A stretch of DNA of 64,000 bases, from NCBI RefSeq assembly GCF_044324785.1, contig NZ_CP172127.1. One strand, 5' to 3'. The notes beneath the pieces are model-generated. The model had not been told where the DNA came from. It searched no databases and was given only the letters and a program-made list of their open reading frames with translations. Numbering within the stretch: the first letter of the stretch is position 1; each line of letters starts with the position of its first letter. Shown here piece by piece: positions 1 through 44,555 of this stretch. The position numbers and the translations under genes were made by a program. Source of the DNA: Escherichia coli. Lineage in GTDB: Bacteria > Pseudomonadota > Gammaproteobacteria > Enterobacterales > Enterobacteriaceae.

Positions 1-133
1 TGCCGGTTCCCGCGTCAGCGAAGCCAGAATCCCGGCGCTTCGCGAGCGGGCCAATGGCCTGTTATTGCAAGGGCAGTGGCTGGATGCCTCCATTCAACTC
101 ACTGGTGCGTTGGGCGGGGGTTACAAACGCTGA
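1..133 (+). CDS. mdtQ: 3' end of an outer-membrane efflux (OMF-type) protein gene, partial (starts before window)
   Basis: Open frame from window edge to TGA at 131-133; C-terminal residues ...LTGALGGGYKR; position upstream of yohF matches recalled E. coli synteny. Confidence 0.4.
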   Translation, partial: AGSRVSEARIPALRERANGLLLQGQWLDASIQLTGALGGGYKR

Positions 134-185
134 TGATATGCGCCTTCTATACTTAACGTTTATTCAGCGTTAAGTGGAGAACTCG

Positions 186-2401: not shown

Positions 2402-2574
2402 AAAGTTCTTTTGTGTTGCATTGCTGGCGTAAATGTCAGCAATGCAGCATTTCCTCACGATTCTCCTTTGACGATCGCACTTTTTGCTCGTTATGATGGC
2501 GTCGCTAGCCTCAGTAAATCCTTACTCCGGCGGTGCGCAACCTGTGCGCGTGAACCACTATCTGAATGCTCATC

Positions 2575-22900: not shown

Positions 22901-22981
22901 AAAAAAACCTGCTGGTGAGGCAGGTTCTTTTATTTACTACAGTGACGCTAACTTGCTGATTGTGCAACATTTCGTACCAAC
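22901..22981 (-). ncRNA. orzO: OrzO-like antitoxin sRNA, copy 1 (~81 nt, boundaries inferred)
   Basis: Minus-strand TATAAT (22993-22988) 17 bp from palindromic TTGCAA (23011-23016); intrinsic terminator on minus strand (stem cctgc/gcagg 22908-22924 followed by U7 at 22907-22901); 5' 18 nt (22964-22981) complementary to zor 5'UTR 23132-23149 with one G-U. Confidence 0.5.
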
Positions 22982-23508: not shown

Positions 23509-23589
23509 AAAAAAACCTGCTGGTGAGGCAGGTTCTTTTATTTACTACTTTGATGTTAAGTTACTGATAGTGCAACATGGCATCTCAAC
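23509..23589 (-). ncRNA. OrzP/OrzO-like antitoxin sRNA, copy 2 (boundaries inferred)
   Basis: Same architecture shifted by 608 bp; 5' pairing region differs from copy 1 at several positions and matches its own cis toxin UTR better. Confidence 0.45.
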
Positions 23590-42474: not shown

Positions 42475-42747
42475 ATGTCTCATACCATCCGTGATAAACA
42501 GAAACTGAAAGCGCGTGCCAGTAAGATTCAGGGCCAGGTCGTGGCGCTCAAGAAAATGCTCGACGAGCCGCACGAATGCGCTGCAGTTTTACAACAGATT
42601 GCTGCTATCCGTGGCGCGGTAAACGGTCTGATGCGGGAAGTGATTAAAGGTCATCTGACGGAACACATCGTTCACCAGGGGGATGAGCTAAAACGTGAAG
42701 AAGATCTGGATGTCGTTCTGAAGGTGCTGGATTCTTATATCAAATAA
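42475..42747 (+). CDS. rcnR: Ni/Co-responsive transcriptional repressor (CsoR/RcnR family)
   Basis: 90 aa ([42 protein letters not shown]...). Confidence 0.9.
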
Positions 42748-42844
42748 TTTATTAACGCGATTGTAAAACTGCGGTTTTTACTCGTTTACAACGCGTGCGC
42801 TGGACATTACCATCCTCCTCTGCGATTTATCATCGCAACCAAAC

Positions 42845-42969
42845 GACTCGGGGTGCCCTTCTGCGTGAAGGCTGAGAAATACCCGTATCACCTGATCTGG
42901 ATAATGCCAGCGTAGGGAAGTCACGGACCACCAGGTCATTGCTTCTTCACGTTATGGCAGGAGCAAACT
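42845..42969 (+). promoter_or_regulatory. TPP (THI-box) riboswitch in thiM leader
   Basis: ggggtgcccttctgcgtgaaggctgagaaatacccgtatcacctgatctggataatgccagcgtagggaagtc matches the classic thiM aptamer including CUGAGA. Confidence 0.9.
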
Positions 42970-43758
42970 ATGCAAGTCGACCTGCTGAGTTCCGCGCAAT
43001 CTGCGCACGCGTTACACCTTTTTCACCAACATTCCCCTCTTGTGCACTGCATGACCAACGATGTGGTGCAAACCTTTACTGCCAATACCTTGCTGGCGCT
43101 CGGTGCATCGCCAGCGATGGTTATCGAAACCGAAGAGGCCAGTCAGTTTGCGGCTATCGCCAGTGCGTTGCTGATTAACGTTGGCACGCTGACGCAGCCA
43201 CGCGCACAGGCGATGCGTGCCGCCGTTGAACAGGCAAAACGCTCTCAAACACCCTGGACGCTTGATCCAGTAGCGGTTGGTGCACTCGACTATCGCCGCC
43301 GTTTTTGTCTGGAACTTCTGTCTCATAAGCCAACCGCCATACGTGGTAATGCTTCGGAAATCATGGCATTAGCTGGCATTGCTAATGGCGGACGGGGAGT
43401 GGATACCACTGACGCCGCAGCTAATGCGATACCCGCTGCACAAACACTGGCACGGGAAACTGGCGCAATCGTCGTGGTCACAGGCGAGGTGGATTATGTT
43501 ACCGATGGTCGTCGCACCGTTGTCATTCACGGTGGCGATCCGCTAATGACCAAAGTGGTAGGAACTGGCTGTGCATTATCGGCGGTTGTCGCTGCCTGTT
43601 GTACGCTACCAGGCGATACGCTGGAAAATATCGCATCTGCCTGTCACTGGATGAAACAAGCCGGAGAACGCGCAGTCGCCAGTAGCGAGGGGCCAGGCAG
43701 TTTTGTTCCACATTTCCTTGATGCGCTCTGGCAATTGACGCCGGAGGTGCAGGCATGA
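42970..43758 (+). CDS. thiM: Hydroxyethylthiazole kinase
   Basis: 262 aa ([30 protein letters not shown]...). Confidence 0.9.
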
Positions 43759-44555
43759 AACGAATTAACGCTCTGACGATTGCCGGTACTGATCCGAGTG
43801 GTGGTGCGGGGATTCAGGCCGATCTTAAAACCTTCTCGGCACTTGGCGCTTATGGTTGCTCAGTGATTACTGCACTGGTGGCGCAAAATACCCGTGGCGT
43901 ACAGTCGGTGTATCGCATTGAGCCTGATTTTGTCGCCGCCCAGCTCGATTCGGTGTTCAGCGATGTGCGAATCGACACCACTAAAATCGGTATGTTGGCG
44001 GAAACCGATATTGTTGAAGCGGTGGCAGAACGGTTGCAACGTTATCAGATCCAAAACGTGGTACTCGACACCGTTATGCTGGCAAAAAGCGGCGACCCAC
44101 TGCTTTCACCTTCGGCAGTTGCCACGCTACGCAGTCGATTATTGCCACAGGTTTCATTAATAACGCCAAACTTGCCCGAAGCAGCCGCCTTGCTCGACGC
44201 GCCACACGCGCGCACCGAACAGGAAATGCTGGAACAAGGGCGATCGCTGTTGGCGATGGGCTGTGGAGCAGTGCTAATGAAAGGTGGTCATCTGGATGAT
44301 GAGCAAAGCCCGGACTGGCTGTTTACCCGCGAGGGTGAACAACGGTTTACCGCACCGCGCATTATGACCCAAAACACCCACGGCACTGGTTGTACACTCT
44401 CTGCGGCGTTGGCTGCACTACGCCCGCGCCATACAAACTGGGCTGACACCGTACAGGAGGCAAAAAGCTGGCTTTCATCGGCGTTAGCCCAGGCCGACAC
44501 GCTGGAAGTTGGTCACGGTATTGGTCCGGTTCACCACTTCCACGCGTGGTGGTGA
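43755..44555 (+). CDS. thiD: Hydroxymethylpyrimidine / phosphomethylpyrimidine kinase
   Basis: 266 aa ([27 protein letters not shown]...); ATGA overlap with thiM. Confidence 0.9.

Follow-up and report, generated by a model that had tools for sequence, protein, structure and literature searches.

The known thiM TPP riboswitch in the leader of the thiMD operon of an Escherichia coli genome

Does the short spacer between rcnR and thiM in this E. coli genome hold a working TPP riboswitch, on which step of gene expression would it act, and how far does the functional unit reach? The DNA analysed, which is E. coli chromosome, was a 64,000-nt stretch of contig NZ_CP172127.1 (assembly GCF_044324785.1), referred to as the window. 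A spacer of 222 nt separates rcnR (42475–42747) from thiM, and the stretch 42845–42969 (+) inside it had been flagged, from the letters alone, as a THI-box aptamer that lies directly upstream of thiM and is expected to sequester the Shine–Dalgarno sequence (SD) upon TPP binding. Our analysis identifies the element, with near certainty, as the TPP riboswitch of E. coli thiMD, which switches expression off mainly at translation initiation. What was obtained here is the family assignment, the identity with the studied K-12 molecule, and the presence and specificity of two alternative pairings; TPP binding, repression in vivo and Rho dependence are taken from the literature on the identical K-12 leader. 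The thiM TPP riboswitch of the window is already known, and there is nothing novel in the window's own element.

The ORFs upstream of the spacer were assigned by NCBIfam to RcnR and RcnA. Downstream lies the regulated operon, thiM–thiD (42970–44555, +), whose two ORFs overlap by 4 nt:

42970–43758 (+): thiM, hydroxyethylthiazole kinase ThiM (TIGR00694, 333 bits against a cut-off of 256)
43755–44555 (+): thiD (TIGR00097, 361 bits, above the cut-off)

The flagged stretch ends at 42969, the base before the ATG of the ThiM ORF, and thus does lie directly upstream of thiM. Two other ORFs at the locus, one antisense (42778–42939, 53 aa) and one out of frame (42939–43178), are mechanical ORFs without support and were set aside.

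Scanning the whole window with Rfam 15 at gathering thresholds returned one TPP riboswitch match, to RF00059 at 42839–42935 (+), with 71.2 bits against a gathering score of 54.3 (E = 5.1e-12). This covariance scan was the check proposed in the preliminary description, and its outcome lies above the curated threshold. The alignment is untruncated and spans the full model (positions 1–105 of 105); the aptamer end is 35 nt from the thiM ATG, on the same strand. When the RF00059 structure line was mapped onto the sequence, 21 of the 23 model base pairs were canonical. One of the two non-canonical pairs is the outermost P1 position and the other vanishes with C42858 (C39) bulged in P3, upon which P3 becomes fully canonical. 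The helices and the thi-box core map as follows:

42845–42848 with 42919–42922 (+): aptamer P1, from the Rfam pair map
42849–42852 and 42854 with 42879 and 42882–42885 (+): aptamer P2, from the Rfam pair map
42855–42861 with 42867–42872 (+): aptamer P3, from the Rfam pair map
42891–42894 with 42913–42916 (+): aptamer P4, from the Rfam pair map
42897–42900 with 42907–42910 (+): aptamer P5, from the Rfam pair map
42872–42912 (+): thi-box core CUGAGA...ACCC...ACCUGAUCUGGAUAAUGCCAGCG, read from the sequence and aligned to conserved model positions

Within the core, CUGAGA (42872–42877) and the ACCUGAUCUGGAUAAUGCCAGCG part (42890–42912) align to upper-case consensus positions of the model. We take the CUGAGA junction to be the pyrimidine sensor and ACCUGAUCUGGAUAAUGCCAGCG to be the pyrophosphate-sensor P4/P5 helix of the known thiM–TPP crystal structures, which were reportedly determined by Serganov et al. 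in 2006 and by Edwards and Ferre-D'Amare in 2006. Score, canonical pairing and identity to K-12 (see below) all bear out the assignment of a THI-box/TPP aptamer to the flagged stretch.

Other RNA families also have matches in the window. Two full-length matches to the OrzO-P antitoxin sRNA were found at 22901–22974 and 23509–23582 (−), with 88.8 and 91.7 bits (gathering threshold, GA, 60); the spacing of the pair, ~600 nt, suggests a tandem zor-orz type I toxin–antitoxin locus. The Peptidase-S11 RNA motif (RF03039), a cis-regulatory candidate motif, matched at 2490–2570 (+) with 73.1 bits against a GA of 34.8.

The functional parts of the leader were located by transferring published numbering to the window. 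The ribosome-binding site (RBS) mutant of E. coli thiM is G142C and the start-codon mutant is U152A (Bastet et al., 2017; PMC5499598). Since A151 corresponds to 42970, +1 falls at 42820 and G142 at 42961, the second G of GGAG. In the Winkler numbering used by Lang et al. (2007; PMC2018614), nt 1 maps to 42835, and all four Winkler/Lang landmarks agree with the window sequence. The sole sigma-70-like match in 42600–43100 is at 42785–42813, its putative −10 ending 7 nt before the inferred transcription start site (TSS). The following features were mapped:

42785–42813 (+): promoter-like site from a sigma-70-like scan, with −35 TTTACA (42785–42790), a 17-nt spacer and −10 TACCAT (42808–42813)
42820 (+): inferred TSS, +1 in the numbering of Bastet et al. 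(2017), deduced from the literature numbering
42821–42837 (+): 5'-terminal leader hairpin UGCGAU-UUAUC-AUCGCA, 6 bp, +2..+18, predicted in both the free and the aptamer-enforced minimum free energy (MFE) structure; outside the Rfam aptamer
42905–42959 (+): ON-state anti-sequestering extended helix, ACCA-capped, from the unconstrained MFE
42917–42920 (+): anti-anti-SD GAAG, Winkler nts 83–86, mapped from the literature; overlaps the P1 3' strand
42930–42933 (+): ACCA tetraloop, Winkler nts 96–99, from literature mapping and the MFE
42939–42946 (+): anti-SD UUGCUUCU, with the core CUUC at 42942–42945 (Winkler nts 108–111), from literature mapping and the enforced fold
42960–42963 (+): SD GGAG, Winkler nts 126–129, 6 nt upstream of the ATG
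42970–42991 (+): start codon and ORF-internal expression platform, +151..+172 (numbering of PMC5499598)
43000–43081 (+): Rho module in thiM, with a C-rich, G-poor rut-like stretch at 43000–43059, from composition and literature sites

The stem of the 5' hairpin (42821–42837) is kept in the sampled E. coli strains and in E. albertii; the loop shows a C/T change, and E. albertii has a G–U pair. This hairpin may act as an mRNA-stabilising stem-loop.

The leader from +1 to +180 was folded in ViennaRNA, either freely or with the aptamer pairs enforced, the latter being a rough stand-in for the ligand-bound RNA. In the free MFE structure, the 3' half of the aptamer (+86..+104) pairs with +121..+140 in a helix capped by the ACCA loop, and GAAG pairs with CUUC (+98..101 with +123..126). 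The TPP-free thiM structure is supported by probing, with the ACCA loop at nts 96–99 (Lang et al., 2007; PMC2018614), coinciding with the free MFE. With the aptamer enforced, the anti-SD UUGCUUCU (+120..127) pairs with AGGAGCAA (+140..147, that is 42959–42966), and +105..118 (42924–42937) pairs with +160..175 (42979–42994) in the early ORF. The anti-SD is hence predicted to engage in mutually exclusive pairings, either with the aptamer 3' strand (ON) or with the SD (OFF), at positions that coincide with the published model.

Enforcing the aptamer lowered the probability of the SD being unpaired from 0.34 to 0.00 in the +1..+180 construct. For 3' ends from +153 to +180, the enforced value was always 0.00, against 0.34–0.65 in the free ensemble, where the SD is 34–65% unpaired depending on the 3' end chosen. 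The expectation that the SD is sequestered upon TPP binding thus agrees with the folding, with the identity of the leader to that of K-12 and with the experimentally supported model for the K-12 leader, in which TPP binding sequesters SD and AUG (PMC2018614; PMC5499598).

As a control, the linker (+105..139) was replaced by 300 dinucleotide-preserving shuffles. Mean SD accessibility with shuffled linkers was 0.36 free and 0.38 enforced. The pairing mass of the ON helix was 15 bp for the native linker, against a shuffle mean of 3.4 bp, and none of the 300 shuffles reached 15. Neither did any of them (0/300) combine an ON helix with SD masking in the enforced state, which shows the bistable design to be specific to the native linker. 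Relative to shuffles, the whole leader was not unusually stable by its MFE (z = −0.40); stability was dropped as a criterion, since one exceptionally low MFE would not be expected of an RNA with two alternative folds. Enforcing the aptamer costs 8–13 kcal/mol, a figure that we do not read quantitatively, since tertiary contacts and ligand energy are omitted from the nearest-neighbour model and switching at physiological TPP is not demonstrable by folding alone. The literature favours a switching decision that is partly kinetic and made co-transcriptionally.

A comparison with K-12 MG1655 revealed complete identity over 42781–42987, which covers the promoter-like site, leader, aptamer, linker, SD, ATG and the first 18 nt of the ORF. 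Four substitutions fall within +1..+310, all past the ATG (+169 G>A, +174 A>C, +240 T>C and +261 C>T), and none affects the aptamer, the anti-SD or the SD; two more lie in the rcnR-proximal part of the spacer, upstream of the promoter. In this strain, the sensing and SD-masking elements are thus those of K-12, and all differences lie outside them. The substitution at +169 (42988) changes ThiM residue 7 from glycine to serine (G7S) and the one at +174 (42993) is synonymous; both are in the ORF-internal part of the platform, +169 in the distal portion of the sequestering structure. The predicted OFF state is the same for the window and K-12 alleles (SD unpaired with a probability of 0.00 in both). 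Free-state SD accessibility differs (0.34 for the window, 0.64 for K-12) in the 180-nt construct only, and because this difference depends on the chosen 3' end, we make no functional claim for +169 G>A. TPP binding kinetics and co-crystal structures have been published for the K-12 aptamer, to which that of the window is identical (PMC2018614).

On these grounds the switch almost certainly operates as follows. Transcription of the leader would begin at ~42820. At low TPP, the 3' strands of P5, P4 and P1, including GAAG (42917–42920), would pair with the pyrimidine-rich anti-SD region (CUUCUU, ~42942–42947), and the resulting long ACCA-capped helix would leave GGAG (42960–42963) available, so that thiM–thiD is translated. 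With TPP bound, aptamer helices P1–P5 would close and reclaim the GAAG strand, and the freed anti-SD would pair with the SD; a second helix, between 42924–42937 and 42979–42994 in the early ORF, would form as well, and ribosome loading would be blocked. The untranslated mRNA would expose a C-rich rut near 43020, and Rho would terminate transcription at ~43050–43081, as known from the literature. Through this termination, mRNA levels of the whole operon would fall too.

Published work refines this picture in two respects. Residues 151–172 belong to the thiM expression platform, which extends ~22 nt into the ORF, and repression exposes a Rho site within about codons 9–34 (PMC5499598). According to this literature, the AUG region and ~22 nt of early coding sequence are part of the platform as well, and repression of translation is coupled to, and reinforced by, Rho-dependent termination inside thiM codons 20–34 (PMC5499598). 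The rut lies at ~+201–210 (43020–43029), and Rho terminates at +231, +237 and +262 (43050, 43056 and 43081) (PMC5499598). In the window, +181..+240 (43000–43059) has a C content of 0.38–0.42 and a G content of 0.10, the composition of a thiM-type rut, and the stretch of the Rho module carries only 2 substitutions relative to K-12. Taking the literature into account, the functional unit would run from the TSS at ~42820 to ~42991, with the Rho-dependent module adding a further part to ~43081. Of the span 42845–42969 given in the preliminary description, the start is sound, as it coincides with the first canonical P1 pair (G42845–C42922), and the extent is too short for the functional unit, which reaches from ~42820 into the ORF at ~42991.

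The weight given here to translation has to be set against a scheme in which the switch acts mainly via transcription or mRNA abundance, by Rho termination or decay, and translational control is secondary. Such a scheme can draw on the finding that TPP lowers thiMD mRNA, that bicyclomycin abolishes this effect and that termination occurs at the three sites named above (PMC5499598), as well as on the C-rich, G-poor stretch that the window keeps at 43000–43059. However, a ThiM–LacZ translational fusion of 6 codons is still repressed by TPP in vivo, while transcriptional fusions of 6–20 codons are not; mutation of the RBS or of the AUG reproduces the OFF state; and the Rho module also works when transplanted behind the btuB riboswitch (PMC5499598). 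These results identify Rho action as a consequence of translational repression, and the specificity of the SD:anti-SD pairing for the native linker points the same way. We consider a primarily Rho-driven switch improbable.

The same holds, far more strongly, for a transcriptional attenuator with an intrinsic terminator of the kind found in many Firmicutes thi-box leaders. Many Bacillus and Clostridium TPP riboswitches do use terminator/antiterminator platforms (general knowledge, summarised in PMC5499598), but a search of 42600–43100 on both strands for a stem followed by a U-tract returned 0 sites, hence none between the aptamer and the start codon, and the OFF-state helix ends at the SD and early ORF without a U-run. 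The attenuator model, extremely unlikely on this evidence, was rejected, and the result fits translational rather than terminator control. Nor is it credible, beyond a very slight chance, that the aptamer match is a decayed, non-functional relic. Relics do occur at the thiM locus of other strains, as in the ST131 strain 751, where the remnant scores 33.3 bits and is without P1-5', P2-5' and P3. The aptamer of the window, by contrast, is complete, above the gathering threshold and identical to the functional K-12 sequence, and its promoter-like site and leader are also intact. An intact OFF switch acting mainly on translation initiation is the reading that we retain.

The distribution of the locus was examined by megablast with 42748–43000 as the query, which found a match in 5424 of 5426 complete E. 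coli genomes. Among the matches listed, every locus with an intact aptamer is annotated 'riboswitch' and 'thiM', and for the best match, strain 118UI, PGAP places a 'TPP riboswitch' at the equivalent of 42839–42935. From P1 to the ATG, the sequences of E. coli and E. albertii vary only in the P3 loop and at one to three positions of the linker. The match covers < 80% of the query in ~700 genomes, two of which were inspected.

In the ST131 strain 751 (NZ_CP103562.1), rcnR and thiM are separated by a 10,981-bp element, inserted inside the aptamer. Its genes code for a tyrosine integrase, a DUF6387 protein, an HTH regulator, an Icd-like protein and a primase, together with a ClpP-like protease/major-capsid fusion, a tail-assembly protein and a DUF1441 protein; the element resembles a phage satellite. 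At the left junction, the native promoter is preserved along with the aptamer as far as ...CUGAGAAAUACCCGUAU, and the right junction resumes at AGAAAUACCCGUAU-CACCUGAUC.... A 14-nt direct repeat, AGAAATACCCGTAT, flanks the element and equals window positions 42875–42888 (J3/2, P2 3' strand and J2/4). Near both ends of the element, 70-nt repeats carry tandem GTGTGGTCAGTT motifs that resemble arm-type sites. The thiM-proximal remnant (33.3 bits) is below the gathering threshold and is without a riboswitch annotation. Next to the Icd-like gene, on the − strand of the element, there is a weak match to the SymR antitoxin (32.8 bits against a GA of 61; E = 0.005), probably by chance or as a distant relative. 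Of the 5426 complete E. coli genomes, 76 have the ST131-type right junction; in the window the site is empty.

It is an evenly balanced question, in our judgement, whether the aptamer core AGAAATACCCGTAT (42875–42888), the most conserved part, doubles as the att site for ~11 kb phage-satellite-like elements with a tyrosine integrase, with thiMD escaping TPP control where the site is occupied. Under such an att-site reading, the aptamer of occupied genomes is split and the remnant has no foldable TPP pocket, so that TPP control of thiMD should be lost; the native thiM promoter, together with the 5' half-aptamer, would point into the integrase gene of the element. Carrier strains would then have a naturally uncoupled thiMD operon, of possible interest for work on mobile elements and on riboswitch-targeting antibacterials. 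No paper on thiM as an integration or att site was found in a limited search of the literature, in which absence is weak evidence.

A different rearrangement is seen in O157:H7 (ECP17-46), where ~2.2 kb of inserted DNA, with an outer-membrane protein gene, a hypothetical gene and a remnant that is HTH-like, separates rcnR from the aptamer. The insert has taken the place of the native thiM promoter and of ~16 nt at the start of the leader (to ~42835); the riboswitch is intact and annotated. This junction is common to 410 genomes, and BL21(DE3) has a related replacement that reaches the base before P1 (~42844). The O157:H7 and BL21 lineages must rely on another promoter for thiMD. Because the window carries the uninterrupted allele, these occupied or replaced alleles leave the verdict on it unchanged.

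As a discovery, the element of the window has little value: the thiM riboswitch is among the founding and best-characterised riboswitches, with two decades of study behind it, and is annotated by automated pipelines. The practical gain lies in exact coordinates for every functional part and in a unit longer than the flagged span.

The conservation of the element beyond E. coli was addressed by scanning species-representative genomes with a degenerate thi-box DNA pattern (34 fixed positions). This gave 120 loci, 53 of which have a ThiM ortholog (40–92% identity) at the same downstream distance. In an alignment of 50 Enterobacterales thiM leaders, little or no variation is seen in the aptamer, the CUUCUU box and GGAG, and the rest of the platform diverges. 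P1, P2, P4 and P5 are 100% paired and never vary, hence are uninformative; P3 has three pairs with compensatory changes. Since the other helices are invariant, in part through the fixed positions of the search pattern, only P3 adds independent covariation evidence for the aptamer. For the helices P1–P5, 94% of cells were paired across the 50 orthologs, against 37–56% in slid controls. The SD:anti-SD core (CUUC:GGAG) is kept in 70–100% of the 50 leaders and its outer pairs are lost; likewise, the ON core GGGAAG:CUUCUU is kept in 70–100% and the remainder of that helix is lost. Changes in both alternative helices are mostly one-sided, and the platform alignment is rich in indels. Given the many platform indels and the ascertainment by pattern, the comparison supports conservation of the core pairings only.

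Folding each ortholog with its aptamer enforced reduced the probability of an unpaired SD to below 0.1 in 17 of 50 leaders, and by any amount in 35 of 50. With clear sequestration of the SD in just 17 leaders, the platform geometry of E. coli is not general, bearing in mind that nearest-neighbour folding is weak for other designs. Other genera evidently use other platform geometries, as far as such models indicate, around the same conserved anti-SD.

Several known systems can be compared with the element. The thi-box of Firmicutes, for example in the tenA and thiC leaders of B. subtilis, shares the aptamer family and the ligand, but works through intrinsic terminator/antiterminator hairpins, which are absent in the window. 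Within E. coli, the thiC (thiCEFSGH) and thiB/tbpA leaders belong to the same RF00059 class and share ligand and OFF logic with thiM; they differ in having other expression platforms and a longer P3, and neither lies in the window. According to the literature, thiC is additionally under pause-dependent, direct Rho control. The TPP riboswitches of E. coli are all reported to combine translational control with mRNA-level effects (PMC5499598, PMC11487190, PMC10578472).

The thiM leaders of other Enterobacterales (Citrobacter, Enterobacter, Kluyvera, Pantoea, Erwinia, Serratia, Edwardsiella and others) have a near-identical aptamer, keep CUUCUU and GGAG, and have a CUGAGA-to-ATG spacing of ~98 nt, as in E. 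coli. They diverge from E. coli in the linker between P1 and the anti-SD and in the outer parts of both helices, and many form a different hairpin, with for example GAUGCC...GGCAUC plus CCGG...CCGG pairings. The closest relative is the thiM TPP riboswitch of E. coli K-12, reportedly described by Winkler et al. in 2002. It is the same element, identical from 42781 through the ATG and flanked likewise by rcnR and thiM–thiD, and its mapped anti-anti-SD, anti-SD, SD and ACCA loop occupy the same positions as in the window. Rho coupling was described for this same K-12 riboswitch (Bastet et al., 2017; PMC5499598).
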